Assembly: GCA_000091205.1 (NCBI GenBank)
Contig: AP006495.2
From: Cyanidioschyzon merolae
Taxonomy: Eukaryota
DNA: 64,000 nucleotides
Reading direction: 5' to 3' (one strand)
The position numbers and the translations under genes are program-made. The notes beneath the pieces are model-generated. The model was given only the letters and a program-made list of their open reading frames with translations, was not told where the DNA came from and did not search any database. Positions 2,412 through 53,531 of this stretch are shown here, one piece after another (position 1 is the first letter of the stretch; every line of letters starts with the position of its first letter).

Positions 2412-3473
2412 TCAGGGGTTCAAATCATCTTGAATAATCTCGTCACCAAGGCCTTGCAGGCTCTCATCCTGATTCGTCACTAATCGCTTGAGTTCCAGGA
2501 AGCGCTGGCATTTGAACATAAGCGCAGGCGTCATCATGTCAAGCGCTGCGCCCCGTCCACTTCGACGTTGAGACTCCCCCAAAGTCACCGCTTCAATATC
2601 AGATGCTCGGGGACGTCTGCCCATTCGCGTATAGAAGCCATCGCTCCAGAGTTTGAGGTCCATAGCGAGTGCCGTGAACTGCCGTTTCAGCCGATCGAAG
2701 GCGTTCTCTTCTGAGGTGTCACTGTTAGTGCGGGCCTCGGTGCCTGCACGGTCTCCTCTTCGCTTTACCCAATGGCGGAGCATCGCTCGCCGAATCTTTT
2801 CTCGGGTCGCCTCAGAATGCTTCTTGCCGCGATTCCAGGCCGGTTTTCCCGACAAGGCCTGACGCATTCGTGCTCGAAACGCCGGATCTTGCCAACGTTT
2901 AGATAGGGATGCAGCTTGCTTTGCGATCGTCCCGTTCGACCGCCTGTTCTGCAAAAGCCGAGCGCGCAGCAGTGGGTCCGTCCAGCGTAATCGCATCGTC
3001 TCTGCACGGGTGCTGCTCGGCGTTCGTTTGCGTGCAGGTGGTGCCGTCGGGGACTTCGATTCCGGGTCAAGCGGCTCTGGTTCTGTGCACGCGGTTACTG
3101 CTGCAGCTGTTGGAGTAGACCGCCTAGCGTTCACAGCTTGTCGCTTCTCGTTCACGTCGTCAGGCACTGGAAAAAGCTGCCCAGAGAATACCACCCCAGT
3201 CGATTTACAGTACGTTTCAGGTGTCAGTGCCGTTGTGGCTGTGCCCACTACGTTTGCTAGGATATTGTGTGCAATTCGCGAGCTCCTGAAACCGAGGCTC
3301 TGTAAACTCGAGAGAGCTTCGTTCGCGTGTGGCACCCAACGCTGACCCTTTTGCAGCCCAAGGGTCAGGGCGGACGTCACGTCACGCGTTGTGTGTAACT
3401 TGCAGCGCAGGGGAACCGCTTTACGACCGCAGCGCTCCATTTTGCAATTGCTGAAAGCAGAACAAATGAACAT
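2412..3473 (-). CDS. Hypothetical protein with tandem W-x-DP-x-x-RAR motifs and a NUMOD3-like G-K-K-HSE-x-T-R-E-K-I segment
   Basis: Uninterrupted GC-rich ORF. The track start at 3491 is TTG, and the first ATG checked is at 3473. The repeats LRWTDPLLRARLL and KRWQDPAFRARMRQAL, followed by GKKHSEATREKIRRAM, resemble NUMOD3-type DNA-binding motifs. I know of no other homology. Confidence 0.35.
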   Translation of the reverse strand: MFICSAFSNCKMERCGRKAVPLRCKLHTTRDVTSALTLGLQKGQRWVPHANEALSSLQSLGFRSSRIAHNILANVVGTATTALTPETYCKSTGVVFSGQLFPVPDDVNEKRQAVNARRSTPTAAAVTACTEPEPLDPESKSPTAPPARKRTPSSTRAETMRLRWTDPLLRARLLQNRRSNGTIAKQAASLSKRWQDPAFRARMRQALSGKPAWNRGKKHSEATREKIRRAMLRHWVKRRGDRAGTEARTNSDTSEENAFDRLKRQFTALAMDLKLWSDGFYTRMGRRPRASDIEAVTLGESQRRSGRGAALDMMTPALMFKCQRFLELKRLVTNQDESLQGLGDEIIQDDLNP

Positions 3474-3614
3474 CACCGCAAAGGCACACAAAACGCCGTT
3501 CTAAACTCGAACGACGCCGACCGTCTACAGTAGTGGCGAGAAGCCCGCCCTTGACAAGAAATCTCCAACTGACGTGCGGACGCCTCCTGGTCTTGTTCGA
3601 CCGGCCACCTACTA

Positions 3615-5922
3615 CTATTTCCAATTTTTTTCATATAGTTCGACTTTAAGAGATTCTCCTACAAAATTCTCTCGTGTCAACTTTGGGGGTCTGTTCTCCA
3701 TCACCGCACATCTCCTTATAATGATTGCGGCGTTAAAGTCCCGGTTCACAAACCCCACACGTTTCTTGCCATTGATTGTACTTTCTAATGCAAGTAGTCC
3801 ACGAACTTTCGCTCTCCTTTCCATTCGCTCTTCCGTCAGCGCTCCGTACTTTGCTATATCCTCAGGGCTCCGCTGGCCCTTTTCTATCTCCACTCTCTGA
3901 AGTGTACAACCTGGCTCGTGGTGTGTGTAGCACCTTCAGATCCCATCTATCGGTATCGGAACGAAACGCCGTGCACACTCCTTGTGCGTTCTGGTCGTTG
4001 GAGCTGGCGTAGTCCCTTTTTGGGGCTTCCAGCGCCCTGCCCCGTATGCTACTACGAGCCTCTGACTTTCATCCTCATTCAGGGCGCTCAACTGATTGAA
4101 AAAATTCGCGAACGCCCGCTGTTTCCCACAGTATAGATTCATTCGCAGATGAGCCCACCGGGGCTGGGTATACTCTTTCCACAGCGACTCCCAGTGAGCA
4201 GGGCGAACTTTCATGAATTTCCGAAACGCTTGACAGTCTGCTCCGCGGCTCGTCACCTCGCCCAAAGCTTCCAGGTGATCCTTCATTCCTGCATTCTACG
4301 TAACGATTTTCTTCCTTGCATTCATTATACCGGATTCTCGATGGTACCGTGCTCTCGAGAATCTCAAAAGACGCATGTCTTTCTGACGCAAGTTGCCGGC
4401 AGTACCATCTTCCGCACGTTTGGGTACTGCGATGGTTATGATATTTGTGTTTCCGGGGTCCGCGCCAACGACAAAGTCGTTCTCATGCACTTCCTGCGTG
4501 GTAGGATCCGCCTCCTTCTCATCTTCATGATTCGCCGCGCCTACGAAAAGGTCGTTCCCCTCCACCTCCTGCGTCACAGGATCCGCCTCTTTGTTTTATT
4601 CATGCTTCGCCGAGGTCGAAGCCGAGGGCGGGACAGGGCGATTTGTCTTCGACTGCCGATAGTGTACGCACATGGCTACCCAATCGGTTCCGATCATCCC
4701 AGTGAATACCTTTTGTTTGCTCAGTCGGAGACGTTTAAAATCGAAGATACTCTTCCTGTACGTCTCTCGGTTTTCACCTATGAACTCCTCCCTGCTAACA
4801 TTGAACTCGGGACTGATCTCCTTCATGATGCCGTAAAGGACTCTGGGGTCGATAGTCACAAAATGCGCCTTGATGTTGCACAACTGAATGACGTTGAAGC
4901 GCTTGCCCATTAGGAAAGCCTTCCGTCTCTCCCACTCTTCATTCCATTTCCTCAATCAGCTTCATCTCCGCCTTCCGTTCGAGTTTCCGGTTCAGGAATA
5001 CGAAATGGCGCAGAATGAGGCGATAGTATCTTTCCTCATCTTTTTTCAACTCTGATATCTTGTCTGCTGGATTCGCCAGCCCCAAGAATGCACGATGCTC
5101 TTGTACAGCCGCACAGATTACAGAAGCTTCATTCGTGCTCTTGTTTGACACCTTCTTCCCAACAAATTCGATATCCTGTTCATGCTTGCGATCGTTCGTG
5201 ATGCCATTGATAATCGCCTATACTCCGTTGCGAGACAGGCCCGAGCACAGCGCAAATACGGCGCGTATCATGAAACTTTCGAGGTTCATAGTCAAATGCT
5301 TCTTCAGGTTCGTGATGTACTTCATCGCCCGATAGTCGTAAATATCCACGTGACCCTTGTATCGAGTACCATCGAAGCTGTAAAAGGGATTTTTTTCGTG
5401 GAGGGCGTGAACTCGCTCATTTTCCCTCCGCGCTTCCGCTGTGCCAAGCATCAGGTGCCGACTAAAATTCTTATCGAAAAATCCTCCGGAATCTCGACCG
5501 TTTCCATGTGCGTCACCTCGCGATACATCTCCCGCACCAAATGCATCAGTCCTGAGGACGCCTTGACAATACTCTTGGAGTACGAGTCGATACTTTTTCG
5601 ATAGCGTGTCGCAACTTTTCCCTGTAGGGATCCTTGATATGTCCAAGAAGAAAGGTTTTCACCACCCTCTCGTCGTACAGCCGTCTTTCTTGGCGCCTTC
5701 GACGGAGGACCTTCCCCCTTCGGTTCTTCTTCTCTTCCTTTTCTTCCGGACTCGGCACTGTTTTTTTCTGGCAGCCGGCGACCGTTGGCCTCCAGGATCG
5801 TCGACTTGCTTTTTCATAACTTTCCTTTTTTTAAGTTCTTTTGAAAAATAACGCTCTTTGAACCCTTCTGTTATATACCGCGAAAAACACTTGAATACAC
5901 TTGTTTGAGGTTCCAAAAACAA
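3615..5922 (-). pseudogene. AT-richer block with a chain of frameshifted minus-strand ORF fragments; candidate degenerate transposon-derived coding remnant
   Basis: Minus-strand ORFs 5659-5922 (K/R-rich, NLS-like), 5546-5758, 5218-5646, 4939-5151, 4596-4955, 3936-4286 and 3615-3893 follow one another in different frames. This stretch is visibly more AT-rich than its flanks. I recognise no intact domain. Confidence 0.3.
4476..4621. repeat. Imperfect ~73-bp tandem duplication
   Basis: gtcgttctcatgcacttcctgcgtggtaggatccgcctcc... recurs as gtcgttcccctccacctcctgcgtcacaggatccgcctct.... This duplication produces the low-complexity ORFs 4149-4913 (+) and 4296-4577 (-). Confidence 0.5.
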
Positions 5923-6092
5923 ATGAACTGAATGACTGTACCTGGCTACGACCTCAACGAAAATACAAATTCTACATGAGATCTACATGCTAGAGATCAG
6001 GATCATGTTTCCCTTCAATGGCGGCATGCGCGTCGCGCCAGTTGACTGCCCGACCTCCGAGGTGCGCTCACTAAGCGCGATTCTTTTTTTCT

Positions 6093-6378
6093 CATTGACA
6101 GAACGTTTACTTAGGCCAGCGGCCTCCGATTGAGCGCTTTTTCTTCTCATACTATTTTTCTGTTTTTGTAGTGCGCGGTAAAGTATCCATCAAACCCCGT
6201 ACTTCCAAGTTCCGTTGCCCATACTTTTTCTCGGATATACTGGCCGTCTCATACGTTCTATCGTGTGCTGAGTACCTGACTCGTTCGTCCGCATTAGCGC
6301 CCATAGCGCCTGCGCCGCCGCTGTACGGAGATAGCACGACGTTGCCGTACCACAAAGGGCATCGGCTCGAGGCCTGCT
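6093..6378 (+). repeat. Dispersed ~290-bp repeat, copy B
   Basis: Same-orientation duplicate of 1985-2281, with the same left and right landmarks. Confidence 0.65.
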
Positions 6379-7176
6379 TCATCCGACGTAGAATCGGGTC
6401 TCGTCCTCAGTTTGTGCTCGGACAGTCTGCGGATGCAGGCTTGTCTTCGCTGCACGACACGCTGGAGAAACTTGGCTGTTAGGATATATCATGGGAGCCG
6501 CCTCTTTCCTTCGCGATCATGCATGGAATGCGTCGTTGTCGGTTGGCAATGCGGGTTTGTGTTTGACACCCACCACAGTGGGTAGGCGTAGAGAGCACTA
6601 AACCCGTGTGCGCATCCGATTCGCTCGACCTTCCGCCTAGAAGGTAGAGTGTGAGTTTGTTCGCCACTTATGAGCGCTGAGGCTCGGTTAGCGGACCATC
6701 ACATGCCAGTGCTACACTCAAAGTGAGTGTCCGGCCTTTGACTATCACGCTGCTGCCCAGCTGCTGCTGTCCTTCAAGGAGCTCGCTGTGCTCCTGCTTC
6801 CAGCGCGGGCACTGTAAGCCTAAATATGGCAGCGTCCGGGGGTCTCGTTTCCACAGCAGGGACAGTGTGATTCCCAGTGCGTTTCCAGTGTCCCTATACG
6901 GCTTAGAGGCGGTGCTGCTAGCCAGAAGCCGGCAACGTAGATTTGCGTCTTCTGGATACACTGCCGCACAACAGCGCACGCCGAGATCGACCACCGCCGT
7001 AGCCTCCACCAGTCGTACTGCAGCCGATGATGCTCGCACGCTGGCCCTGAGCGGCATCTCGATCTCTTTTGTGAGAAAGATACGGGTCACTGCTGTACAG
7101 CGATGACCGGAGCTCGCTAGGGAGTCTTATAGGATAGGTTGATGTTCCGACTTTCTTCGCATTCTTTTTTCTCGAG

Positions 7177-11866: not shown

Positions 11867-13402
11867 ATGAAAACCAAAAGTCGAGGTAAGACGAACCATT
11901 GGGACCGTGACGGTGCTCCGGCGGTGGCACGCGAGCACCAGTACCGCAGCAGCCGCAAAGGCACTGCAAAAGGGAGTGTGGCGGCGCCCGTGCACAAGCG
12001 GAGCTTGTATGCTCGAGGCCTGCTGCTCGTTGTACTCTATCTGTTTCAGGGCGTACCCATGGGCCTCACCTTTGGCTCGCTGCCGTTTCTGCTCCAGACG
12101 CGCTCTTCCTACGCCAAGCTCGGTGTATTTTCCTCTGCGTCGTATCCGTACTCACTGAAGCTTCTCTGGTCACCGATCGTCGACTCGGTATACGCGTCGC
12201 GTCTCGGTCGTCGCAAATCCTGGATTGTACCTGCGCAACTCCTTATAGGGGTCATCATGGCCTCCATGGCCGCAGCAGTGGAACGCTGGGTTCAACATGC
12301 CCGAGTGATGCAGTTGACGCTTTTCTGCTGGGGGCTCGTTTTCCTTGCGGCAACACAGGATATTGCGGTAGACGGTTGGGCATTAACGCTCTTAGGTGAA
12401 GCAGGATCCGGGTACGCATCGATTTGTCAATCGCTAGGGCTTAGTCTAGGGTACTTTTCGAGCTATACAGTTTTCCTCGCGCTGAACAGCGATGAATTTT
12501 GCGTCCGATGGCTGCAGCAAACATCCGCCGTGATTCGCTTGTATACCTTTCTGCGAATCATGGGTGCATCATTCATTGCGTTCACGCTAATGTTGGCAGT
12601 TTTTGTCAAAGAAGAAATGGCGGAGGATTTGACGCTTGTTCCGCAACCCGACACCGGAGGCCTGTGGTCCGCTCTGCGAGATGCGTATGCCGCGCTTTGG
12701 AGCATACTGCGCAAGCGCTCCATTCAGCGCTTGGTTGTATTCCTCTTGTTCAGTAAGTTTCCCTTTGCTGCTCATGATCACATATCGTCACTGCAGCTGG
12801 TGCGTCGCGGGTTCCCGCGTCAACAGCTGGCATTCATGGCGGTGCTCCAGTGGCCGTTCGACGTCATCGGAGCAATCGCTGTTGGTCGGTATGCCCGGAA
12901 CAGCCGTAACCTCAAGGACAGTCTCTGGCGATGGGGCTTTTTTCTGCGGCTGATGCTCGCAATGTTCACTCCGCTGCTCATCCACTATTTCTTCCCGCGT
13001 GGTGAAAGCGCACGATCCCGTTGGATGTTTGTCGCGATTTTCATCGTCAGTGTTCTTTACCAGTTAGCCAGCGATGGTCTAATGTTTGTGTCCACGTCTT
13101 CGTACTGTGCTCGGATTAGCGATAAGCGCTTTGGAGGCACGTACCTCACGCTTTTGAATACTGCATCGAATTTGGGGGGAACGTGGGCGACCCCGTTGGT
13201 TTTCGGTGCAGCGCACCGCTTCGGATACCTTCGTGTCGCTTTGGCTCTCCCTTTGTGTGGCCTGCTCGTATACTTGCTGCTCCTGGGACCAACTCTGGAC
13301 TATTTGGAGAAGGTTCCGGCATCAGCGTGGCAGCTTGATCGGGGTCCAGCCCAAGCCGTCGCTTCTGTGCCTCACCGCAAAACACTCCGATGTCGCGAGT
13401 GA
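11867..13402 (+). CDS. Acetyl-coenzyme A transporter 1 (AT-1 / SLC33A1 family)
   Basis: ATG at 11867. Near-collinear with SLC33A1 motifs: LYLFQGVPMGL..GSLPFLLQ, YPYSLKLLWSPIVDSVY..LGRRKSWIVP, FLAATQDIAVDGWALTLL and GGTYLTLLNTASNLGGTW. A multi-pass MFS-like membrane protein. Confidence 0.85.
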   Translation: MKTKSRGKTNHWDRDGAPAVAREHQYRSSRKGTAKGSVAAPVHKRSLYARGLLLVVLYLFQGVPMGLTFGSLPFLLQTRSSYAKLGVFSSASYPYSLKLLWSPIVDSVYASRLGRRKSWIVPAQLLIGVIMASMAAAVERWVQHARVMQLTLFCWGLVFLAATQDIAVDGWALTLLGEAGSGYASICQSLGLSLGYFSSYTVFLALNSDEFCVRWLQQTSAVIRLYTFLRIMGASFIAFTLMLAVFVKEEMAEDLTLVPQPDTGGLWSALRDAYAALWSILRKRSIQRLVVFLLFSKFPFAAHDHISSLQLVRRGFPRQQLAFMAVLQWPFDVIGAIAVGRYARNSRNLKDSLWRWGFFLRLMLAMFTPLLIHYFFPRGESARSRWMFVAIFIVSVLYQLASDGLMFVSTSSYCARISDKRFGGTYLTLLNTASNLGGTWATPLVFGAAHRFGYLRVALALPLCGLLVYLLLLGPTLDYLEKVPASAWQLDRGPAQAVASVPHRKTLRCRE

Positions 13403-14708
13403 TGAATGCACCTTGACAGTGAGTCGATTACGCAATGCTTCAGTTCCTGACTTGTGAGCACTCAGAATAAGCGCTCTGCCCACGTGGTAGAATGTGGTCT
13501 TGGTCGGCATCGTATTGTGCAAAGAGAACCGTATGGAAACGGGCGCTCCGTACGACGCTTTAACATTAGCGCACGCGCGATGCATCTTTTCCCATACGGC
13601 GAGAAGGCGCTCAGTCTCATGCTTTTCGGACAATACGGGTTATCTCCCGCATCCTCATGTGCCCCGATTCCAGAGCATGTGGTCAGCACGGACGGCTCTG
13701 GAGCATCAGTGGGCTCGTTGTGCCCGGTAGTTGGTTAGGCGCCAAACATCGAGCCATGGTCGCTGTAAGCATCACAGAGACTCAAGGTGGATTCTGGCGG
13801 CAAGAATCCATATACTGGCGAGTCGCCGATATTGTTTGCTCGTTTGCCGCGCTTCTGGACATGGTCGTGAGTAGATTTCTGTTATGCCGCGTTGTTTCTC
13901 GATGGGCACAGGTAATGAAGGCCCGAGGATGCCCGTCATCCATTGAGAGCTTGTCCGTAAACCAATCGATTCCGTACCATGACAAGTGGCACCACGGCTC
14001 GAATGGACCCGTGCGCTGGGATGTCAGAAAAGCTCCGAGGCGCCTCGGAGATGCTCGCACCCGAGCATCGCTACCATTCCAGGGGACTCTGTCTCCGCTT
14101 TGGAATGCCCATGAAAGGACCCTTGCGCCAGGCATTACCAAGAAGCATCGCAGCTGCCGTTTTCCCCAAAGTATGAGCTGGTGCTGCTCCGTGGATACCC
14201 GGTCCAGTTTTGGTACCAAGCCGCCCGTCGATCCTAGAAGCGGCTTTTTCGGAAAAAAGCTTGTCTGCTTGGCACTTCATCGGCAAGCTTCCGACCCGGA
14301 CGTGCGTCACGCTGCTAGCGTCTCCAATGATCATGGTGGCTCCTGGATTTCCGCTCAGGATCCCTGAAGTGAATCAGATGTCGCCAGACGCACAGCTTCA
14401 TAGCAATGCGTCATATCCTTTTCGTTTCTTGTGGAATGAGGGCATCTACCCTGATCTCGCGGGATGCGCGGACCCTCTCCAAGAATCAAAATACGGAGCA
14501 TACCTCTTCGGCTGTCGCTTCGATATTCGCCATGTGCATACCCCAATTCGGGATCGCATGTCAAACAATGAATAAAAAATCAACAAGCCCCTTACAGACC
14601 AGCATCAGCACATCGCGATGCACACTCCGAAACAGAAGCACTTAAAACGTTGGCTGAAAATCACAGGGCAAAGGCGCTTCCTATCAAAACCACGAGTACA
14701 AAGCGCCT

Positions 14709-15677
14709 CCCAGCAACTGTCCGTTTCTTCAAGCACCGGAGCGATGGATGATCGTCACAGTCGATCCTATTTCTTATAACCCAGCAACTGTCCGTTTCTT
14801 CAAGCACTGGAGCGATGGATGATCGTCACGGTCGATCCTATTTCGTATAACCCAGCAACTGTCCGTATCTTAAAGCACTGGAGCGATGGATGATCGTCAC
14901 AGTCGATCCTACTTCTTACATCCCAGCAACTGTCCGTTTCTTCAAGCACTGGAGCGATGGATGATCGTCACGGTCGATCCTATTTCGTATAACCCAGCAA
15001 CTGTCCGTTTCTTAAAGCACTGGAGCGATGGATGATCGTCACAGTCGATCCTACTTCTTACATCCCAGCAACTGTCCGTTTCTTCAAGCACTGGAGCGAT
15101 GGATGATCGTCACAGTCGATCCTATTTCTTATAACCCAGCAACTGTCCGTTTCTTCAAGCACTGGAGCGATGGATGATCGTCACGGTCGATCCTATTTCG
15201 TATAACCCAGCAACTGTCCGTTTCTTAAAGCACTGGAGCGATGGATGATCGTCACAGTCGATCCTACTTCTTACATCCCAGCAACTGTCCGTTTCTTCAA
15301 GCACTGGAGCGATGGATGATCGTCACAGTCGATCCTATTTCTTATAACCCAGCAACTGTCCGTTTCTTCAAGCACTGGAGCGATGGATGATCGTCACAGT
15401 CGATCCTATTTCGTATAACCCAGCAACTGTCCGTATCTTCAAGCACTGGAGCGATGGATGATCGTCACAGTCGATCCTATTTCTTATAACCCAGCAACTG
15501 TCCGTTTCTTAAAGCACTGGAGCGATGGATGATCGTCACAGTCGATCCTATTTCGTATAACCCAGCAACTGTCCGTATCTTAAAGCACTGGAGCGATGGA
15601 TGATCGTCACAGTCGATCCTATTTCGTATAACCCAGCAACTGTCCGTATCTTAAAGCACTGGAGCGATGGATGATCG
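14709..15677. repeat. 71-bp minisatellite, about 13.6 tandem copies
   Basis: The unit CCCAGCAACTGTCCGTTTCTTCAAGCACTGGAGCGATGGATGATCGTCACAGTCGATCCTATTTCTTATAA recurs with period 71. Unit variants differ at ttcttataac / ttcgtataac / cttcttacatc and at cttcaag / cttaaag, and units 4-6 equal units 7-9, giving a 213-bp higher-order repeat. A short (GAC/GAT)n tract follows at 15690-15720. Confidence 0.9.
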
Positions 15678-16041
15678 CCTGCGTATGTGGCGGTCAAACG
15701 ACGACGACGACGATGACGATCTGCGTCGCCATCGAGGTGGCGTTTCTACCTAGCGCCTGTCCGCCGTCGCTTAAACACTAGGTAGCCATTGCGTTTTCTG
15801 TACTCGTTGGAGGGGGACTTTGCTTGAACGGTGTTGGTAACGAACTGGGTCCAGGGCAGCAAGGTATTTCCCAAAAAGACGCTGGCTGAAAGACACTCGA
15901 ACACGTCAGTCAAGCGAGGACTTTGGACATAGTCCTTGTGGACGCAGAAGCAAACGAGCCTGGGTCTTTTTGCGTCGCGAGGCGTTACCGAGCGCATCGA
16001 CTACAGTCTGACGCACCCCTAGGATCGGAATAGTGACTTTA

Positions 16042-19000
16042 ATGGGGGATTTGGGTGAACATGCACCGTCGAATGGCTCCGCAAAGGATAGCGTTCGGCG
16101 CTATGTTGAGGAACACGGCGGTAGTAGACCAATTCAGCGCTTATTGGTCGCAAACAACGGAATCGCCGCCGTAAAGTGCATCCGATCAATGCGAAGATGG
16201 GCATACGAAGCGTTTGGTAGTGAACGAGCGCTGGAGTTTGTAGCAATGGCCACTCCCGAGGATGTTCAAGCCAACGCCGACTACATTCGCCTCGCTGACC
16301 TCTTCGTTCCCGTACCTGGGGGAAGCAACAACCACAACTACGCCAACGTGGAGCTCATCGTCGACATCGCGGAAAGGAACGAGTGCGATGCAGTATGGGC
16401 GGGTTGGGGTCACGCCAGCGAGAACCCGCTGCTGCCCGCTCGCCTTGCGGAGACTGGTATCGCATTCCTGGGACCGGATGCCATTGCCATGAGGGCGCTC
16501 GGCGACAAGATTTCGTCAACGTTGTTAGCTCAGTCTGCGGATGTTCCAGTCGTCAGCTGGAACGGTGATGACTTGAAGGTAACTTTTCACCGCGAGCGCG
16601 GCGGTATTGATGAAGAACGCTATCGCCGTGCCTGCGTTGCGAATGTCGACGAGGCTCGCGCTGCTGCCGATCGTATTGGCTACCCAGTGATGATTAAAGC
16701 CAGCGAAGGAGGCGGTGGCAAAGGCATCCGTCTTTGCCGTCGACCAGAGGATGTTCGAGATGCCTTTCGTCAGGTCGCCGGAGAGATTCCTGGCTCTCCG
16801 ATCTTCATCATGAAAATGGTGGATCAAGCGCGACACCTGGAAGTGCAGATTGTTGCCGATGAATACGGGCACGCGATAGCGCTATATGGGCGTGACTGCT
16901 CCGTGCAGAGACGGCATCAAAAGATCATCGAGGAAGGGCCAGTTACGGCAACGCCACCGCAGGTTTGGAAAGAGCTCGAACATGGAGCGGTGCGTCTTGC
17001 CAAAATGGTCGGTTACGTAGGTGCCGGCACTGTTGAGTATCTCTACGACGGTCGACGTTTCTATTTCCTGGAACTGAATCCGCGCTTGCAGGTGGAGCAC
17101 CCAGTAACCGAGTGGATCACTGGCGTGAACCTGCCTGCAGTCCAGCTGCAGATTGCCATGGGGATTCCGCTCCAGCGTATTGCAGCTATCCAAGCACTTT
17201 ACGGCAATAGACCGGACCTGGATCTCGAGCGACACCAGCCGAACCCGCCGCATGGCCACGTAATCGCCTGCCGCGTTACCGCAGAAAATCCCGAGGAAGG
17301 ATTCCAGCCGACAAGCGGCTCCATTCAGGAGCTTTCGTTTCGAAATACGCCCAATGTGTGGGGCTATTTCAGCGTCGGCGCCTGGGGTGGTGTCCACGAG
17401 TACGCTGACTCGCAATTCGGGCACCTTTTTGCCTGGGGTGCGGATCGCGAGATGGCCCGGAGGAATATGGTGCTGGCACTGAAAGAGCTCAGCATCCGCG
17501 GAGATATCCGCACAACGGTGGAGTATCTTATTACGTTGCTGGAGCTCGAATCGTATCGCGAAAATCGCATCCATACCCGTTGGCTGGACAACCTCATTGC
17601 CTCCAAAGTGAAACCAGAGCGACCGCCGTTCCATATCGCTGTTGTGCTTGGTGCAGTCCATCAGGCGTACAGAGCCTGGTCTGAGCGCCGGCGATCTTTT
17701 GTTGAGTCGCTGAGTCGCGGTCAAGTGCCGCAGCGTATTGACGCTACCTTCATAGAATTTCAGTTCGAGCTGATCTACGATGAGCTCAAGTACGCGCTCA
17801 TCGTCAGGCAAGCGGGTCCGAATGCCTTCCACGTCTCCCTAGCACAGCATCCCGAGGAACGGGTGCGTGTTGATTTCCGACCTCTGCTGGACGGTGGTCT
17901 CTTGATCATGTGCGATGGTCGCTCCTTCAATACTCACTCCAAGGAGGATTCCACTGGCATGCGTCTGAGCATCGACGGGCGAACCTGTGTGTTCCCAGGC
18001 GAAATGGACCCTACGCGCATTGCAGCACAGGCCTCGGGGCGTCTCGTCCGATACCTGGTTGCCAACGAGGAACACGTCGATCAGGGACAAGTCATTGCGG
18101 AGATTGAAGTCATGAAAATGTATCTGAGCGTGCAGGCTCCCGAACCGGGCACCATTCACTTGCTGAAACCAGCGGGAGCGGCCCTGGAGCCAGGCGAAGT
18201 TTTTGCGCAGCTCGATCTCGACGATCCGAGCAAAGTTCGACGGGTGACGCCATTTACTGGGCGCTTTCCGACAATGCTGCCTCCACAGCGACTGGGAAAG
18301 AAACCGCACCAGCGCTTTGAGAGCGCGAAACAGCAGATCGAAGCGCTCCTGGACGGCTACGATGTTGATATGGAGCCGCTCGGCATGCTTCTGCAGCTGG
18401 CGAGCACCGAACCGGCAGTACCGGCCGGGAAACTGCAGGAGGCGCTCTCTTTCCTAGCCGGTCGTATTCCGTCGACGTTGCATGCCGCCCTTCTAGGACA
18501 AGTTTTCGAACTGCGTTCCGTTGCTCGTGATGATCACGAGCGCCTCCAACAGCATTTCCGCGAAATGAAGCGCATGATCAGCGATTTCTGCGAGCAACTT
18601 GCCATCGCAGCGGACCGCGAGGCGCTGGAGGCTACCCTGCGCCCCCTGACCAGTATCCTGGAGGCGTATGTTCGCGGGGGCCTTCGCGGCTACCACGAGC
18701 ATCTCGTTGTATGCCTCATGCAACGCTATGTGAATACGGAGAAGTATTTTGCGCAAGGTCGGCGGCTCGATGAGGTTCTATTCGATCTGCGCGAACAACA
18801 CCGCGAGCACTTGGAAGTTGTTGCGGATATCATGCTCGCACATGCCCAGTTAGCGCGAAAGAACCAACTGATGCTCGCTTTGCTCGATCACATAGCCGCG
18901 GATGCATCGCTTCTGCGCAGTGTCATTGTCCGGCAGTGCCTTCACGAGGTGGCTGCGTTCATCCACCCCGACTATAGCCAACTGGCGCTGCGAGCAAGAC

Positions 19001-22000
19001 TCTTGCTGGCGAGTTCTCGTCGCCGAGCGCTCCCCGAACGTCGAGAGCGCCTCTGCAAGCAGATCGAACAGGCTGTACATGCGCCCACTGAAGAACAATG
19101 CTATCGTCTGTTGCACGCGGTGGTCGAGTCCCAGGAAAGCATCCTGGATGCGCTGGTGAGCCTAACCATGAACCCGGGGGTGCCGGTGGAGATTCGCAAA
19201 GCCGCTGTCCAGTGCCAGATCCTGCGGGCCTACAAAGCGTACCACGTGTACGATCTGGTTGTCGAACTTGACGAGGAACTGGGTTTCCTGCGGGCGTTGT
19301 GGCGTTTCCAGTATCGTTCAAACCTGAACGCTTTTGGTAGTCATTCCAGTATGCGGTCGTTTCCGGCGGCATTGGTGGCGGCGTCGGCTCCGCTAGCCCG
19401 CCGGCAGCTGCGTAGCTACGACTCTGCGGACAATTTGCAGAACTGGGGCTTTCGAGTCGGTATGTTGGTCGTCTTTGAGACGCTGCGGGCGATGGTGCAG
19501 GGTTTCGATCGTGTGCTCCAGGTTTTTCGAGCGGAAACCGGCGGCGAAACGCTGGCTTCGCCTCGTACCAAGTCGAGCGCCGCAGTCGATTCCAGTGCAG
19601 ACTCCAGTGCTGAAGGTATTGGTGTCAATGTACTGACCATCGCCATTCCCTGGACGGCCGTGGAGGTCGCTGATTTTGCGAAATACCTGGGCGTTGCAGA
19701 CGCGGACGACCGTCTGCAGGCAAGTAATGCGAACGACTCGGAGCAGGTTGTCGCCCTGCTCACGCGTTTCTGTCGCTCTTCCGCGGAGCGCAAAGCCTCG
19801 ATGCGCGCTGCCGGTATCAAACTTGTGACCTTTTTGGTGGCACCCGGTGAACTGTGCCAGCGCACGCTGGGCTCCAGTCTGCCTCGTGAAAGCACTTATC
19901 CGGGTTTCTATACGTTGCGGGCATCGCTCGAGTACGCCGAGGATCCCATTTATCGCCACATTGATCCACCAGCGGCTTTCCAGCTGGAGCTGAATCGATT
20001 GGCGAACTTTCGTATCACCCGCTTTGAACATCCGAACCGCTCCATTCACGTCTTCTACGCGGAAGATCGAACCGACAAGGGCGACGCTCGCTTCTTCGTG
20101 CGCGCTTTTGTACGGCAAGCGGAAGTCTACGCCAGTCCCAGCGATACAGCAGCGGTTTCGATCCCGGAAGCGGAGAGGACTTTTGTGGCCTGTCTGGATG
20201 CCTTGGAAACCGCCCGTTGTGATAGGCGCTTCCGACGAACGGACTTTAATCATCTCTTCTTGCACCTGATTCCCCGGGTCTCCATCGATGTGGATGACGT
20301 CGAGGCGATCTGTACGCGCCTCTTTTATCGGTTCTCCTCACGTTGCTGGCGTTTGCGCGTGTTCATGGTAGAGATCAAAGTCCATGTGGAAAAAATGGGC
20401 CCGAAACCGCTTCGATTTATTCTCTATAATCCAACCGGACACTCGTTACGCGTTGAAGGCTACGTGGAACAGGGAGATCGTCTCCTGTCGTTGGATTCCA
20501 GCGATCCGGGTCATTTACATGGTACACCCGTCGATGAGCCGTACCAGGTACTGAACCGTATCCAGCGCCGGCGAGTTGTTGCCCAGACGCTCGAAACAAC
20601 TTACGTCTACGATTACCAGGAGCTTTTCACCAAAGCACTCCATGAGCAGTGGCGGCGTTATTCGCAGGAACGACTTTTGGGAGGATTTCGCCGCCACAAG
20701 ATACCGCTGAAACTGCTGACCTGCACGGAGCTCGTTCTCCAGGATGAAGATCATGACGAGAGCGAGCTGATAGAGACCAACCGCCCCGCCGGGGAGAATG
20801 AAATCGGTATGGTCGCCTGGCGCTACACCTTCTTCACGCCCGAGTATCCCCAGGGTCGCGATGCGATCGTCATTGCCAACGATATCACGTACCTGAGTGG
20901 ATCGTTTGGACCTCGAGAGGATCGCCTCTTTGCCAAGGCGTCTCAGCAGGCGAGAAAGCTCGGTATACCGCGCATCTACATCGCTGCGAATAGCGGAGCC
21001 CGAATCGGCCTCGCGGAAGAACTGCGCAACGTCTTCCAAGTTCAGTGGAAGGATGCACATGACCCGAGCCGAGGCTTCGACTACCTCTACCTGGGACTGG
21101 CGGATAAGCTCAAGTACGAGGATGAACTCGGCATCGTGCGAACGCGAGACGTCGGCGGCGGCAAGTACGCTCTAGTTGATATCTATGGCGCTGAGGATGG
21201 CATTGGTGTCGAGAACCTCATGGGTTCAGCGTGCATCGCTGCCGAGACCTCAGCCGCCTACAATGACTGCTTCACCATCACGTACGTCGCAGCGCGCTGT
21301 GTGGGGATCGGTGCGTACCTCGTGCGCCTGGGGCAGCGCGTTATCCAGCGCGAGCACAATGCACCGATCATCCTCACTGGCTACTCAGCGCTGAATAAGC
21401 TTCTGGGTCGCGAAGTCTACACCAGCCACGAACAGCTGGGCGGTACGAAGATCATGTATCCGAACGGGGTTACCCATCTGCGCGTATCCAATGACTACGA
21501 GGGTGTTCGGGCAATTCTGGACTGGCTCGCTTTTGTGCCTCGTATGCAAGGGGAACGACCTCCGATGATCGACTCCATCGATGCTGTGGTACGCGAAGTC
21601 GACTACGATCCACGAGTGGCTAACGAGGATATTCGATACGCCATTGAAGGCAAGTGGGTCGGACCCTTCGCTCCCGACGGGGCAAGTGTGGTCTCGTCGT
21701 CGGGCTCGTCGGTGTCGTCCAATGGTCCGGTTGCGACAGGTGCGAGCGCTGGACTGCCGCCCGTCAACATGGAGAGTGTCGGCGGTGAAGTTCGGTATCG
21801 TTCGCGGTCGCGGACGGCTTCGTATGCGGGTGCGAATGCAGCAACAGCAGCAGCACCAGGAGCAAGTAGCTTGGCGACCTCTGGAGCGGCACTTGCGAAT
21901 GCTACGGGACGAGCAGCGGCTCGGGTGAGCCTCGTATCGACCAAGCCTGCAACCGGTGTCGAGGAGGTTCCCGCGGCGTTGCCTTCGGGTTCGAGTTCAC

Positions 22001-23447
22001 TGGCGCTCCGCTCGACCGCTGTCGCTGCGCCTGTACCTCAGGAGAGAGCAAAGACGGATGCGGATGCGGATGCGGATGCGGATGCGGATGCCTTGGAGGC
22101 CACTGGAACTGCCCGAGGCGCAGATACCAGCGGTGCTGGGGCGCACGCAAGCCCTGACACCCGGCAGCCGCCCACACTGGATGCCCTGAAGACTGCGAGG
22201 TTTGCACCAGCGCCCGCTGCATTGCCGACGACAGGTTTACGCTCGCCACCACAGTCCCCGGGTTCTGTTTCTGCGTATAGCCCGTTGGAGAGTGGCTCTC
22301 CATTGGAGCCGTCCCTTGACGAGGATCACATCGCTTTCACGGACACCGATCGGATGCGGATCGGGTCGCCTTTGGTACACGCGACCGACGCCTGGGATAC
22401 GAGCAACAGCGTTCACTCGAGTAGCGCGACGACGATGGCTGCAGGTGCCGTCCGGGGCTCGCGACTGTTCACTGCGTCATCGAGTACGTCGGCGGCTGCG
22501 GGAGCAAGCGCCAGCAATAGCAGCAACAACGGTAGCAGCAATGCGAATACGAATACCATGAACAATGCTGGGAGTAGCGTGGCATCGGCAGGCGCACCGC
22601 TCAACACCACCGGTAGCATCAATACCAATACCAATGCCAATGCCAATACCAACAATATCTTGGGTAGCGGTGGTGTTGGTGCGACAGCTTCGCTGACCGC
22701 TTGGAGCGGTAACCTTCCGCCGCTACCGTACGTTCCAAATACGCTCATGGTGGTGGACAACCAAGGGTACGTGTTCCTGGCAGGCCTCTTCGACCGTCAC
22801 TCGTTTCGAGAGACGCTCGCTGGCTGGGCGAAGTCCGTTGTGGTTGGTAGAGCACGCCTTGGTGGTATCCCCGTGGGCGTTATTGCGACACAGACGGTGA
22901 CCACAGAGAAGGTTATTCCCCCGGATCCAGCGGCGCCAGACTCGCGTGAGCTTCGTGAACAGCAGGCCGGTCAAGTCTGGTATCCAGATTCATCCTTCAA
23001 GACTGCCCAAAGTATTCGTGATTTTGATCGCGAGGGTTTGCCTCTGTTTGTTCTGGCCAGCTGGCGCGGTTTCTCTGGCGGAGCACACGACATGTTCCAG
23101 GAAATACTCAAGTTTGGTTCAGAGATCGTTGACGCGCTTCGCGAGTACTCGAAACCCGTCTTTGTGTACATACCACCGGGAGGCGAGCTTCGAGGCGGTG
23201 CCTGGGTCGTCCTCGATACCGCCATCAATCCCCGCTTTATCGAAATGTACGCCGATGAAAGTGCACGTGGTGGTGTGCTCGAACCTGCCGGTACCGTGGA
23301 TATCAAGTTCCGCACCAGAGATTTGCTGAAGACCATGCAGCGCCTGCTACCATCGTCTAGACGTGATGAGAGCGATTCGAGTGCGTCCGACGTTGTCGGC
23401 ATGCTGTCTTTGGACGCATCATCATCATCAGCAGCAGCAACAGCAGC

Positions 23448-23481
<34 letters not shown>

Positions 23482-24201
23482 GCAGGTACCGCTGGGACGT
23501 CCTCTTCGACTGCTGGGCGTAGCGAGTCGCGGGTCACAAAGTCAACGGCGGACGGCTTGCCAGCCTTCGAGGCAGACGGTCGGAGTTCGCTCGAGCAAAC
23601 ACTCTTGCCCATCTTTCAGCAGATAGCCATGACGTTTGCGGATCTGCACGATACAGCGGGTCGGATGCAACATAAGCGCGCGATTCGCCGAGTGGTACCC
23701 TGGCGAACAAGTCGCACGTTTTTCTACTGGCGCCTTCGACGTCGGCTCGCCGAGGAGGAACTGCGGAGTCGCGTTTCACAAGCGGATCCGCAACTCAGCG
23801 ACGCGGAGATCGATGCGCTGCTGCGGAAATGGGCAAGAGCACATGACCCCGCTCTGGACGGTGATATTTACGAACTTGATGATCCTCGTGTCGTGCAATG
23901 GCTCGAGGACGAATTGGATAGCCAGTTGGAGCGGCGTTTGCACAAACTCCGCGAAGCACGCGCCACCTGGCAAGCTGTGGAACTGGGGAATACAGCACCC
24001 GAGGCGTTGCTTGCGGCAATTGAGCGTATTCTCGTACAAATGGATGAAGTTGGTCGCAACGAATGGTTACGAACGCTTAGTGCGCGACTCGAGAACACCT
24101 CATCCGGTTTGGGTGATCTCGAGGCGCCCAGCTCGGGTGAGCAGGCCGCACCACGACGTGTCTTGTCGGGTCGTGGTCTGCTGCGACGCTTCCTCGGGTA
24201 G
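16042..24201 (+). CDS. ACC: Acetyl-CoA carboxylase, eukaryotic multidomain type (biotin carboxylase, BCCP, central domain and carboxyltransferase)
   Basis: The track start at 16033 is GTG, and the first ATG at 16042 sits just after an in-frame TGA at 16009. The biotin carboxylase domain has [51 protein letters not shown] and ELNPRLQVEHPVTE. The biotinylation motif EIEVMKM lies at about 18106-18120. The carboxyltransferase domain has [38 protein letters not shown]. The 2720-residue length reflects low-complexity insertions. Confidence 0.95.
21680..22720 (+). repeat. Low-complexity insertion of about 350 aa inside the ACC carboxyltransferase domain, including (GCGGAT)6 encoding DADADADADADA and an NTNTNANANTNN tract
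   Basis: The insertion lies between the conserved IEGKWVGP block and the PPLPYVPNTLMVVDNQGYVF block. It is S/A/T/N-rich, and the hexamer repeat is visible at 22055-22090. Confidence 0.8.
23424..23486 (+). repeat. (CAA/CAG/ATC)n trinucleotide tract inside ACC, encoding SSSSAAATAATTTTTTTTTTTAG
   Basis: Direct read of atcatcatcagcagcagcaacagcagcaacaacaacaacaacaacaacaacaacaacagcag. Confidence 0.9.
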
Positions 24202-24777
24202 TGCGCTACGACTCTGGAACGATTTGCGCGGGTTGCATCGGTGGTGTTGTCATCGTCGTCGACGCCGACGTCGATGGCAACGGCAGCCTCGTCCAGAGTC
24301 AGGAGTTTGCCGCGCGATGCTGTTTACCTATGGGGGCGTCGGGGAGCTTCCACGACGTTCGGTCGTGGAAAACATACATGGACGACAACGGAGCATTTTC
24401 GACGCTTGCGAACGCGCAAATGCACCAGCACAAGTCATAAACACGAAAAGAATCCGGGGTTTTCATTGCAACGATTCCGGCGAGGTACCCCAGCGGGCTC
24501 TGATCTGCAGAGGTGCTTGTCTAGACGTACGGCTACTCGAGTTGTCGCAGCGTCATGGACGTACTCGTCACGCAAATATGGTTTACGCTTGGGTTTCGGC
24601 TTCATTGCAGACGGCGTGCAGTGTCAACGCGCAAAGATACGCACACAAAGAAGCGCTTTGGTCTAGACGCGGGCATGGATGCTAGCACACCTCTCTAGAC
24701 GAACGAATTCGGTGCCGTGGACGAACCCCAGTACCTAGGTAGCTACACAAACGCGTACGCATGTCGATGCGTCGATG

Positions 24778-26421
24778 CTAGGGTTTATCAGGGCAAAGCG
24801 CATTGCAGCAAGCTGCTTGATCGGAAGCTCGCGAGCCCTGGTATCGATCGTAGTATCGAATACCACGTCCGTCAATGCGAACGAGGTAGTAGGTTCCGGG
24901 GAAGAGTTCCTCCAACGGTTCGGAGGGCTCGTAATCACAGGCGCCGTAGTTCTGTTCGCGAAGACGAAGCGTCTCATGAAAACAAGCAGGCGACGTCGGT
25001 ATCCGTGCTCCTAGTCGTTCTATGAGACCAACTCGTCGAAGAAGCGCCTCCGGAGAGGCCACGACCCGCATGGCGTACATTGACGCTGCCATGCCGCTGC
25101 CAAAACCGAAAAGAACCACCCGTTTGCCGAGTGTACGATCCCTCTCGGCATCGAGTAAGCACAGTAAATTACCAAAAAGCGAGGCGGTGTACGCGTTGCC
25201 GGTTTGTCGAGCCAGCGTCGTCGACGGAGCACACTTGGCGCGATACAGTGGCTCCGAGCATTCAAGCACGAGCTGCATCAGGGTTCGATCCCAGTAGGTT
25301 GACGGTGGCGGTACGCACACACCAGTCGGGTTCAGGTGCGCAGGGAGGCGTTTCAGCTTGGCAAGTTGCGCACGTAACGCACCCGATACGGCACGATGCT
25401 GTGAAGCCAGTTCAGGATAGCGCAAGTAGTCGTTGAGCACGAGTCGCGCAAACGATTTGCGCACCAGTTTGTTGAATGGTGCATGGAAAACCACATAATC
25501 GAGTTGCGTTGCGTCGGCATCCGCGACCGGTGTCACCGAAGGCTCAGCAAAAGCGGTGCTTGTCAGCAGGGTGCATCGAAGCGACTGTTGTTCGGTGACC
25601 TGCTCGGCACCGGGTCGACCGCTGGTTTCCGCCAGCCATACTCGTGTGCGTCGAGTCTGCTGCTCGACTCGTCCAGTAAACCTGGTGTAACAGATATCGA
25701 GTGCTCTAAAATAGCAAGCAATGCTTTCCGTGCCATTCACAATAGGATACTCTGTATCCTGTCGACGAGCAGGCTTGAAAAAGTCCCATGTGTTTTCAAA
25801 ATGGCTACTTTTAAGGCCCGGTTCCAGCACCAGGATGGGCTCTAGCTGCGGGTAGCGTTGGGGCTGCGCTCGACCAATGAGGAGCGCGACTGCGCCCGCT
25901 CCACCGGTTGCTCTCGCTGGTCCGCGCGGATACACGGCAATATCGCCGCACACCACGAGCCCGAAGCGACCATCAAAGAGGGTACAGCTCTCGCACCAAG
26001 CGATGGTGTTGAAGAGGGCATTGGTACCAGCGTAGCAGGCGTTGGTAGAATCGATGCCTTCGACCTCAAAGTTGCCGCTCTGTTCAAAGAGGGACATGAG
26101 CGCCGTCTTGATCGACTTGGCTCGATCGATGATGGTCTCGGTGCCGACCTCGAGCCTGCCGATGTCGTTGTATTCAATTCGGTATTTCTCCATGAGCGTC
26201 TGCACGACTGTCATGCACATCGAGCGCACATCCTCGCGATCGCCACAGAACGACATGGCTTGTTGTCCCAAACCGATGGTGTATTTCCCAGGGGTGACGC
26301 CGTCGAAGCTCTCCAGCGCCCGTTGATCGACATATTTGCGTGGGAAGTATACTTCAATGGCCAGAATACCTACCGGATCAAAGGTGGAGACTGAAGGAGC
26401 CAAAAGCTGCGCTTGTCGCAT
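24778..26421 (-). CDS. HMGCS: Hydroxymethylglutaryl-CoA synthase (cytosolic mevalonate-pathway type)
   Basis: Long collinear match to HMG-CoA synthase: VGILAIEVYFPRKYVDQRALESFDGV, GKYTIGLGQQAMSFCGDREDVRSMCMTVVQTLMEKY, GRLEVGTETIIDRAKSIKT, EGIDSTNACYAGTNALFN and GGAGAVALLIG. An ATG (minus strand) at 26421 sits just before the conserved N-terminus. The ORF is open further upstream to 26595, so a 58-aa N-terminal extension is possible. Confidence 0.9.
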   Translation of the reverse strand: MRQAQLLAPSVSTFDPVGILAIEVYFPRKYVDQRALESFDGVTPGKYTIGLGQQAMSFCGDREDVRSMCMTVVQTLMEKYRIEYNDIGRLEVGTETIIDRAKSIKTALMSLFEQSGNFEVEGIDSTNACYAGTNALFNTIAWCESCTLFDGRFGLVVCGDIAVYPRGPARATGGAGAVALLIGRAQPQRYPQLEPILVLEPGLKSSHFENTWDFFKPARRQDTEYPIVNGTESIACYFRALDICYTRFTGRVEQQTRRTRVWLAETSGRPGAEQVTEQQSLRCTLLTSTAFAEPSVTPVADADATQLDYVVFHAPFNKLVRKSFARLVLNDYLRYPELASQHRAVSGALRAQLAKLKRLPAHLNPTGVCVPPPSTYWDRTLMQLVLECSEPLYRAKCAPSTTLARQTGNAYTASLFGNLLCLLDAERDRTLGKRVVLFGFGSGMAASMYAMRVVASPEALLRRVGLIERLGARIPTSPACFHETLRLREQNYGACDYEPSEPLEELFPGTYYLVRIDGRGIRYYDRYQGSRASDQAACCNALCPDKP

Positions 26422-27862
26422 CGTATCCGGGTGAAGTGGCTCCGACTCCTGTGCAGCACTCGTTGTTGGCGGCATTCCGCAAAACCAAGGCCTGTTTTGT
26501 TCCCTGCGTGACAAGCATGAAGACGTCCGCTGCGTTTGCTGGTCAGACGAGCACCAGCTGTCTTTGTCTGATAACCAACTTGTCTGGAGCTCCATAGGCT
26601 GTAGTGCTCCACCGAGCTCTTTTTAACCGTGCCGGTCGCTTGTATTCTAGAAGCCGCGACACTTCAGGTCGGTCGATGTACAGCAACCCAACGCAAGCGG
26701 TGGCGCTTTTCGTGCAGAAGCGCGGACCTCGCCGTACGTATCGCTCAGGCTCCGAAACGCACCAGCGAGTTTCTCGTTCGCAGTGAGAGTTCAGCCACTC
26801 AGTTCGATGGACCAGGCTTGTCTAATCGACGCAATGTTCCACCATACATAGAAACATGGTGCAACCAAAGTCTTTCCCGAACGGCATGAGCCAACCGCTT
26901 TGCTCATACGTATCCAGCTGGGAGAAGCAGCAGCAGCGGCAGCGGCGATGGCGGCGGCAGCGGCGATCTCCACGCTTGGAGCCACCAGGGCTCGTGTCCG
27001 TTTTTTCTTTCTACGAGATAGCGCCCATGAAACACGGAGTGCAGGCAGTGCTCCTGCTTCCTGCTAGACGAACGGATACGATCGCGTGTCAACGAGATGC
27101 TCGAGTCGAGTCTGTCCGATTCTGGTGCTGGGAACATGACGGGTCTTTTCGTATACGCGTACGGCCTCATATCCGTTTATGTGAAACGGGATCTCGGATC
27201 CCAACCCAGTCGCTCCATCAACGTTCTTGTGAACAGTACCGAAGCTTGACATGCTGCGGCCTGTTTGGTAGCATTTCTCAGACAACTTTTGCAGCGGCAT
27301 CAATTGATCAAAAGACCTTCGAGTTGATAGAGTCAAACAGATTCCGTTTCGGGTGCACGGTGTTCAGCGTAAGGGCCAGGAGACGGGTGACTCATGCACC
27401 CGCTTATCGTAGAATGAGTACCATGGGGAAAACGGTAGATTTTTCGCCTGCTACCGGTGACGGAATCCAGACTTTCGGCGGTCTGGCTCCCGACTAGTGG
27501 ATGCATTCCTTCTATTGAATACTTCCGGGAAAACAGAACCCAATCGGCGTGATGGTATAGGTATTCCAGAATTTACTGCTCTGCGTCTACCAGCATGACA
27601 GTGCTAAGTTTAGATGCATCATTCGTGTACCATTTAGACTGTTCAAGGGATCGACTTCATCGCAGACAACATTTCGAAAAAAGACGGTATTGGCGTGTCA
27701 CAGCCGCGAACGGCCGGTCGTGCGCCTTGAACAACCCGAATGCGGGACGTAGCCAGTATGCACCGCAAGCTCCAAAGTACGGACCAACACCAAAAACCTA
27801 ATCGATTCAACTGCAGAGATGCCTGCTTGTGAATTCCAGCCAGTCGCGTACCGCCACGTGCT

Positions 27863-35428: not shown

Positions 35429-35592
35429 GACGCACAGCGTACAGCACGCCTTCAAAGAGCAGGTTCATTCGCAGCTGTTTCGAGTTCGACACCCTTCCGT
35501 CACTTCGTAAGACGCACAGCGTACAGCACGCCTTCAAAGAGCAGGTTCATTCGCAGCTGTTTCGAGTTCGACACCCCTCCGTCGCTTCGGAC
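35429..35592. repeat. 82-bp tandem duplication (2 copies)
   Basis: gacgcacagcgtacagcacgccttcaaagagcaggttcattcgcagctgtttcgagttcgacaccc.tccgtc.cttcg occurs twice back to back. It is the reason minus ORFs 35256-35537 and 35500-35913 share the peptide SNSKQLRMNLLFEGVLYAV. Confidence 0.85.
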
Positions 35593-53245: not shown

Positions 53246-53531
53246 GTTCGTGAAGGAGGCGTTACGGCTGCGCGGATACGAAACGAGGGGTTCTACCTCT
53301 TGACCGAAAGAGGCTCTCAAACTCAGTTTCGGCCCTAAACAGCTCAGAAACAGGAAGCACTCACGAGGGCAACACGCTTTGACACAAAACCGGTGCCTAC
53401 GAGTCGCACGCTCTCACGCAGTCAAAGCTTGTGAGCGCTCACGCGCTGCCCCCGATAGCCTCGCCCCGCGTTTGTCAGTAGACGCCAGGTCGAGTCGGGT
53501 ACACACACGAGGTTGTCGTTGTCGTCGACGA

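Follow-up and report, generated by a model that had tools for sequence, protein, structure and literature searches.

The window analysed here is a stretch of 64,000 nucleotides that forms part of chromosome 13 of Cyanidioschyzon merolae 10D. Three neighbouring genes in it have acetyl-CoA in common. The first (11867–13402, + strand) codes for an MFS transporter of the AT-1/SLC33A1 family, a putative acetyl-CoA transporter. Its match to the Pfam Acatn profile (PF13000) reaches 329.8 bits for a cut-off of 23.7 (E = 3.9e-98), which places it in the family, and its translation is identical to BAM81038.1/XP_005537074.1 of C. merolae 10D. Mammalian AT-1 transports acetyl-CoA into the lumen of the ER/Golgi, and the closest named homologues of the C. 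merolae protein carry an acetyl-CoA transporter annotation. Orthologues are found in Cyanidiococcus (72% identity), Cyanidium (57%), and Galdieria and Porphyridium (41–44%). At NCBI, BAM81038.1 is labelled "hypothetical protein, conserved."

The second gene, also on the + strand, is intronless and codes for a multidomain acetyl-CoA carboxylase of 2719 aa, ACC1 (start at 16033/16042, end at 24201). It corresponds to CMM188C, an assignment taken from an orthogroup table, and the accession between BAM81038.1 (AT-1) and BAM81040.1 (HMGS) is presumably that of this protein. The Pfam domains Biotin_carb_N, CPSase_L_D2, Biotin_carb_C, ACCA_BT, Biotin_lipoyl, ACC_central, and Carboxyl_trans follow each other in the canonical order, so that BC, BCCP, the central region, and CT lie in one polypeptide, as expected of a eukaryotic multidomain ACC. 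The biotinylation motif EVMKM occupies residues 688–692 (K692), and a low-complexity insert of ~360 aa (21679–22761) lies within the carboxyltransferase region. Identity is 74% to the Cyanidiococcus homologue and ranges from 42% to 74% across red-algal and vertebrate ACCs.

The third gene, on the − strand, codes for an HMG-CoA synthase, HMGS (CMM189C), with both the HMG_CoA_synt_N and HMG_CoA_synt_C domains (E = 3.2e-79 and 1.5e-62, respectively) and an exact match to BAM81040.1. The deposited protein of 605 aa is encoded at 24778–26595. An alternative start at 26421 gives a protein of 547 aa, which is also among metagenome gene calls; this shorter form is the one originally predicted, with the right gene and strand but not the deposited start. 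The catalytic Glu/Cys/His residues are intact (E153, C187, and H371), each in a conserved motif, and the motifs GTETIID, NACYAGT, and VFHAPF are invariant in an alignment of four Cyanidiales sequences. The N-terminal extension was considered as a mitochondrial presequence, a reading that its poor conservation and its acidic residues do not favour. Pfam matches, exact protein matches, and coordinates thus bear out the identities, strands, and adjacency of the three genes as first described. All three are probably independently transcribed housekeeping genes, and they are already annotated in C. merolae 10D and partly characterised.

AT-1 and ACC1 lie in tandem, separated by 2639 bp (13403–16041), within which the ACC1 promoter should fall. 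This spacer contains a minisatellite of 13.6 copies of a 71-bp unit (14709–15677, TRF) that is found nowhere else in the window, and an ORF of 236 aa (13657–14367). It measures 1653 bp in Cyanidiococcus, 370 bp in a Cyanidium-like contig, and 367 bp in Cyanidium. ACC1 and HMGS converge 3′ to 3′ over 576 bp (24202–24777). In Galdieria sulphuraria and G. partita alike, this distance is 68 bp; it comes to 101 bp in the Cyanidium-like contig and 120 bp in Cyanidium caldarium, and reaches 1216 bp in Cyanidiococcus. With one junction in tandem over 2.6 kb and the other convergent, the three genes have no common promoter. A hidden gene or RNA between them was also considered and rejected: there are no tRNAs and no Rfam families in 9000–30000, and neither the ORF at 13657–14367 nor a further one at 26856–27497 has a Pfam match or a tblastn match in any relative. 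Because the intervening ORFs are unconserved, the view that nothing but the minisatellite separates the genes stands.

Two of the generic pathway labels given to these genes are misleading in C. merolae. HMGS had been taken as the commitment to the mevalonate/isoprenoid pathway, yet searches with plant, algal, yeast, bacterial, and animal queries found no enzyme of this pathway beyond HMGS in C. merolae (PMC12649381), an absence also reported in PMC6642084. On this literature, HMGR, MK, PMK, and MDD are missing and HMGS is the only mevalonate-specific enzyme that remains (PMC12649381, PMC6642084). Hence, it is an orphan enzyme that cannot commit carbon to isoprenoids. In its intact catalytic residues and the lack of HMGR, MK, PMK, and MDD, it resembles the orphan HMGS of other algae without the mevalonate pathway (PMC6642084); the linkage to ACC1 brings no demonstrated functional information. 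The linkage is also present in Galdieria, a genus reported to run both the mevalonate and the MEP pathways (PMC12649381). Similarly, ACC1 had been described as the commitment to fatty-acid synthesis, but the GFP fusion of CMM188C is cytosolic and de novo fatty-acid synthesis is plastidial, via a multisubunit plastid ACCase (PMC4928187); ACC1 is therefore not the carboxylase of fatty-acid synthesis. If HMGS is cytosolic, all three products plausibly handle the same cytosolic pool of acetyl-CoA, a point that would speak against pure coincidence.

Among Cyanidiales, the order AT-1(+)/ACC(+)/HMGS(−) is kept in two Cyanidiococcus loci, in the Cyanidium-like contig, and in Cyanidium caldarium, while two further Cyanidiococcus loci span the AT-1 and ACC side only. 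The trio is not singular in this respect, as the whole block from ~2.4 to 41.7 kb is also collinear in Cyanidiococcus and Cyanidium as far as each locus extends. Upstream, the conserved genes code for a NUMOD3 protein, a Methyltransf_33 protein, and an LRR protein, with, in C. caldarium, a NOL9-like gene that only this locus is long enough to show, the others ending before it. Downstream they code for L17, ribophorin II, and TIP41, and in the Cyanidium-like contig also for a methyltransferase, an ESCRT-II protein, and PFK. By a published estimate, 86.0% of genes are collinear among the three Cyanidiales genera (PMC9812998). Because the flanking block and most of the genome are also collinear, the persistence of the trio in Cyanidiococcus and Cyanidium says little: where nearly everything is collinear, conserved order is no evidence of function.

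Comparisons with more distant red algae give a different picture for each junction. In G. sulphuraria and G. partita, ACC(+) and HMGS(−) are adjacent, and their convergent orientation is unchanged across the Galdieriales–Cyanidiales split; in PMC9812998, Cyanidiophyceae are described as having lived in hot springs for >1 billion years. With the exception of the NOL9-like gene in G. partita, neither AT-1 nor any other gene of the window is found near these two Galdieria loci, and the two species already have different genes on the far side of HMGS. AT-1 lies on other scaffolds than ACC in two Galdieria species, among unrelated neighbours, and on a different contig from ACC in Porphyridium. Neither AT-1 nor HMGS is present within 10 kb of ACC in Rhodosorus, Porphyridium, or Gracilariopsis. 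The original prediction looked to gene order in related genomes for support; the order is found in Cyanidiococcus and Cyanidium, with flanks as collinear as the trio itself, and is broken in Galdieria and Porphyridium.

The retention of ACC next to HMGS in Galdieria could be taken as a sign of selection, an idea that we dropped in view of the background rate and of the local pattern of decay. Among pairs of genes numbered as adjacent in Cyanidiococcus, 13 of 54 (24%) are also adjacent in G. partita, a baseline that relies on the gene numbering of the orthogroup table of PMC13353863, among the rows listed and for one orthogroup size class only. Hence, towards Galdieria too, about one-quarter of the sampled adjacent pairs persist. 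Locally, five orthologues common to both lineages lie within ~15 genes (CMM177C/g5197, CMM180C/g5196, CMM188C/g5192, CMM189C/g5193, and CMM196C/g5183), which is what remains of a decayed block that includes ACC and HMGS. The pair is in this respect like the rest of the residual ancestral microsynteny between Galdieriales and Cyanidiales; it falls into the category of conserved microsynteny and does not differ from it.

Well-known metabolic clusters of eukaryotes, such as GAL and DAL in yeast and the specialised-metabolite clusters of fungi and plants, bring together co-regulated genes for successive steps of one pathway. AT-1, ACC1, and HMGS resemble them in being adjacent, nonhomologous metabolic genes. 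They differ in that only the substrate is common to three separate processes, one of them a truncated pathway, and in that their order is not conserved above background synteny, given the 86% collinearity, the 24% baseline for pairs, and outgroups that lack both adjacencies. If ~45 of the 4775 genes use acetyl-CoA (a class size that is our own estimate), one expects by chance ~0.4 adjacent pairs and ~0.004 trios per genome, and the probability that a pair already in place is extended to a trio is ~1.8%, all these figures being for the acetyl-CoA theme alone and before correction for other themes. Taken alone, and uncorrected for other themes, the trio is therefore unlikely.

That low expectation counts in favour of a selected arrangement, in which a chromatin-level module would split cytosolic acetyl-CoA among import into the ER, malonyl-CoA, and HMG-CoA, selection having kept ACC next to HMGS since the cyanidiophycean ancestor and AT-1 having been recruited in Cyanidiales. 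The presence of the trio in all three Cyanidiales genera, the cytosolic location of ACC1 (PMC4928187), and the persistence of ACC–HMGS in Galdieria while the far side of HMGS was rearranged between the two species are all consistent with it. Nevertheless, it appears very improbable, as conservation does not exceed the background in either comparison (PMC9812998 for Cyanidiales), AT-1 lies apart from ACC in Galdieria and Porphyridium, the genes share no promoter, and they serve three different pathways, with that of HMGS truncated (PMC12649381). The few expression data lend it no support but say little: ACC and HMGS are both "non-DEG" in a single comparison, of haploid with diploid cells, and in the main text of a nickel-stress study only ACC among the three is reported as changed. 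Expression of all three genes together is not found in the indexed papers naming CMM188C or CMM189C, and the supplements of PMC12112623 and PMC12770821 have no entries for CMM185C–CMM190C.

A constraint of structure rather than of function would concern only the convergent pair. Here the close 3′ ends of ACC and HMGS, with overlapping transcripts or terminators, would make breakpoints between them rare or harmful; antisense or transcriptional-interference coupling might follow, and AT-1 would be a bystander. The short stop-to-stop distances in Galdieria, the Cyanidium-like contig, and C. caldarium (68–120 bp) fit this idea, as does the survival of the pair while the adjoining junctions broke. 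However, C. merolae and Cyanidiococcus have kept the pair together even with longer spacers of 576 and 1216 bp, respectively, so tight overlap is not required, and a background retention of 24% needs no special mechanism. This explanation is thus improbable as well, if somewhat less so than selected co-regulation.

The gene identities, the gene order seen across nine further genomes or contigs, and the background retention of adjacency together make it quite probable that AT-1, ACC1, and HMGS are neighbours by ordinary inherited gene order and coincidence, and do not form a functional cluster. Since the order of the trio is no better conserved than that of its neighbours, a chance neighbourhood is the most likely explanation, and we infer that neither selection for the arrangement nor shared regulation is involved. 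In such a history, the convergent ACC1/HMGS pair would date to the common ancestor of Cyanidiophyceae and would have survived inside a partly decayed synteny block, like about one-quarter of the sampled pairs; AT-1 is found beside ACC1 in Cyanidiales alone, and gene order in that group would have stayed almost entirely frozen since. The shared acetyl-CoA theme would then most likely be coincidental, the three products serving what are probably unrelated processes: acetyl-CoA import into the secretory pathway, the supply of malonyl-CoA to fatty-acid elongation in the cytosol/ER, and a pool of HMG-CoA. Of the two possibilities raised originally, background synteny thus favours coincidence; functional clustering is left unsupported, with conservation no higher than background and AT-1 away from ACC in Galdieria and Porphyridium.

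The available text of the literature naming CMM188C or CMM189C does not mention the ACC1/HMGS adjacency. As it stands, this adjacency matters little, because background synteny explains it. It is very doubtful that selection maintains the pair, joined by AT-1 in Cyanidiales, as a module that acts through chromatin or transcriptional interference and balances the competing sinks of a small cytosolic acetyl-CoA pool. If it did, the linkage to ACC1 might hint at the role of orphan HMGS in algae without the mevalonate pathway. Were the pair co-regulated, it would rank among the rare instances in which genes of primary metabolism cluster around a shared substrate, and would offer a clue to the puzzle of why red and green algae have kept HMGS.

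The three genes are immediate neighbors, as originally noted and as both the ORF listing and Pfam scans confirm. A gene of the AT-1/SLC33A1 family (11867-13402, +; Pfam Acatn/PF13000, E 3.9e-98) is followed by that of the multidomain acetyl-CoA carboxylase ACC1 (16042-24201, +), which has all the Pfam biotin carboxylase, BT, BCCP, central, and carboxyltransferase domains and the biotinylation motif EVMKM, and then by the convergent gene of HMG-CoA synthase (HMGS; 24778-26595, -), with both Pfam HMGS domains. The AT-1 and HMGS translations exactly match the C. merolae 10D proteins BAM81038.1 and BAM81040.1, which places the window on chromosome 13, and ACC and HMGS are CMM188C and CMM189C in a published orthogroup table (PMC13353863). 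The genes are already annotated and partly characterized; the AT-1 homolog is a putative acetyl-CoA transporter, assigned through family membership. They have no promoter in common.

The AT-1/ACC spacer (2639 bp) contains a minisatellite upstream of ACC1 (71 bp x 13.6, 14709-15677, 94% matches), which occurs only once in the window. Because this spacer is shorter in Cyanidiococcus (1653 bp) and Cyanidium (~370 bp), the minisatellite has probably expanded recently, in the lineage of Cyanidioschyzon. The ORF at 13657-14367 in the same spacer has no Pfam domain and, by tblastn, no counterpart in the relatives' loci compared. The ACC/HMGS spacer measures 576 bp. No tRNA gene or Rfam family was found around the trio or in its spacers.

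ACC1 carries a low-complexity insert of ~360 aa (21679-22761, residues ~1880-2240), rich in Ala, Ser, Thr, Gly, and Asn, that interrupts the carboxyltransferase region between two conserved segments. The short coding repeats 22055-22091 and 22620-22652 fall inside this insert. The CAA/polyGln run at 23438-23481 lies downstream of the insert and is separate from it. The insert is full length in Cyanidiococcus and ~120 aa long in the Cyanidium-like ACC, and its flanks are contiguous in the ACC of Galdieria, Rhodosorus, Porphyridium, Gracilariopsis, and birds.

The order AT-1(+)/ACC(+)/HMGS(-) is also found in Cyanidiococcus yangmingshanensis (L001), a second genome resembling Cyanidiococcus (L002), a Cyanidium-like metagenome contig (L005), and Cyanidium caldarium (L012); the loci L003-L004 carry the same AT-1 and ACC as L002, but stop just past ACC. 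When all ORFs of the window were compared with these loci by tblastn, the whole stretch ~2412-41701 was collinear, with the genes for a NUMOD3 protein, Methyltransf_33, an LRR protein, AT-1, ACC, HMGS, mitochondrial L17, ribophorin II, an unnamed product, and TIP41; in L005, methyltransferase, ESCRT-II, and PFK come next. As 86.0% of genes are collinear among three Cyanidiales genera (PMC9812998), conservation of the trio within this order is the default outcome and is uninformative on function.

The first gene of this stretch (2412-3491, -) encodes a conserved Cyanidiales protein of ~355 aa, whose orthologs in Cyanidiococcus and on the Cyanidium-like contig are found at the equivalent place; its sole Pfam match is NUMOD3, a DNA-binding motif of homing endonucleases. 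An 82 bp x 2 tandem duplication (35429-35589, 97% matches) immediately precedes the methyltransferase gene that begins at 35741; another (75 bp x 2, 4460-4612) is inside the unconserved ORF 4149-4913. Compared with the central block, 3492-7176 and 41888-64000 look poorer in genes, and ORFs of 180 aa or more are limited there to 4149-4913, 43681-44994, 51911-53320, 54990-56828, and 60370-63135, with 61238-61795 nested within the last of these.

Outside the Cyanidiales, the trio breaks up. In Galdieria sulphuraria and G. partita, ACC(+) and HMGS(-) are immediate convergent neighbors, 68 bp apart, but AT-1 is absent from these loci and all other neighbors differ from those of the window; in Galdieria, AT-1 is found on separate scaffolds, in unrelated surroundings. 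Neither HMGS nor AT-1 is within 10 kb of ACC in Rhodosorus marinus, Porphyridium purpureum, or Gracilariopsis chorda, and in Porphyridium AT-1 and ACC are on different contigs. On this evidence, AT-1/ACC adjacency is limited to Cyanidiales and ACC/HMGS adjacency to Cyanidiophyceae.

At first, we considered that the retention of ACC/HMGS might be remarkable, given that Galdieriales and Cyanidiales are described as having a gene order "not strongly conserved" between them (PMC9812998), and dropped this idea on two grounds. Among the 257 orthogroups taken from three parts of the truncated PMC13353863 table (a single size class, with adjacency taken from gene numbers in genome order), 13 of the 54 pairs numbered adjacent in Cyanidiococcus are also numbered adjacent in G. 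partita (24%), ACC/HMGS being one of them. The same table equates CMM177C, CMM180C, CMM188C, CMM189C, and CMM196C with G. partita g5197, g5196, g5192, g5193, and g5183, respectively, which marks the region as a decayed block of synteny. In agreement with this, the NOL9/Grc3-like gene ~15 kb upstream of ACC (92-1375, +; CLP1_P + NOL9_C; CMM180C in that table) matches G. partita NOL9, three genes beyond HMGS (L009, the ACC locus, 23142-25022, -), and is, along with CMM177C and CMM196C, a remnant of a larger ancestral block. Therefore, the retention of ACC/HMGS needs no special explanation. Most of the orthogroups covered from supplementary file 6 of PMC13353863 have two G. partita genes with mirrored numbering (e.g., ACC g1008/g5192, HMGS g1007/g5193, NOL9 g1004/g5196), and the block is thus present twice in the N1 assembly, as two haplotypes or a large duplication.

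If ~45 acetyl-CoA-using genes (our own estimate) were randomly ordered among 4775 genes (the total given in PMC12770821), one would expect ~0.4 adjacent acetyl-CoA pairs and ~0.004 trios per genome, and the probability of finding a third gene of this kind next to an existing pair would be ~1.8%. The chance of a trio is low, yet the theme was picked after seeing the data, where a hundred or more metabolites or pathways could have supplied a comparable one; with this correction, some such trio might be expected at the order of tenths per genome. Inherited gene order together with coincidence is most likely the explanation of the trio. The proposed functional cluster finds no backing, as order is conserved no more than background (86.0% collinearity, 24% pair retention). 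An improbable, minor alternative is that ACC and HMGS, a tightly convergent pair and the one adjacency shared with Galdieria, which falls within this background, are held together by a structural constraint. Selected co-regulation of cytosolic acetyl-CoA sinks is unsupported and more improbable still. When haploid and diploid cells of three species are compared, both ACC and HMGS are classed as "non-DEG" (PMC13353863), a result that is uninformative on co-expression.

Two of the three products also differ from what was originally supposed. HMGS does not commit acetyl-CoA to the mevalonate/isoprenoid pathway in C. merolae, which depends on the MEP pathway and in which no mevalonate enzyme past HMGS is detectable (PMC12649381). 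Such an unexplained orphan HMGS is known from many red algae and from some green ones (PMC6642084). Since the alignment shows no variation in its catalytic Glu, Cys, and His motifs, the C. merolae enzyme is probably active; its N-terminal extension (~58-75 aa) is poorly conserved and partly acidic. It has two candidate start codons, at 26595 and 26421, and an internal variable insert at residues ~315-365. Nor is ACC1 the enzyme that commits acetyl-CoA to fatty-acid synthesis: it is cytosolic by GFP, and de novo synthesis is plastidial, via a multisubunit ACCase (PMC4928187). ACC1 therefore most likely provides malonyl-CoA for elongation in the ER.
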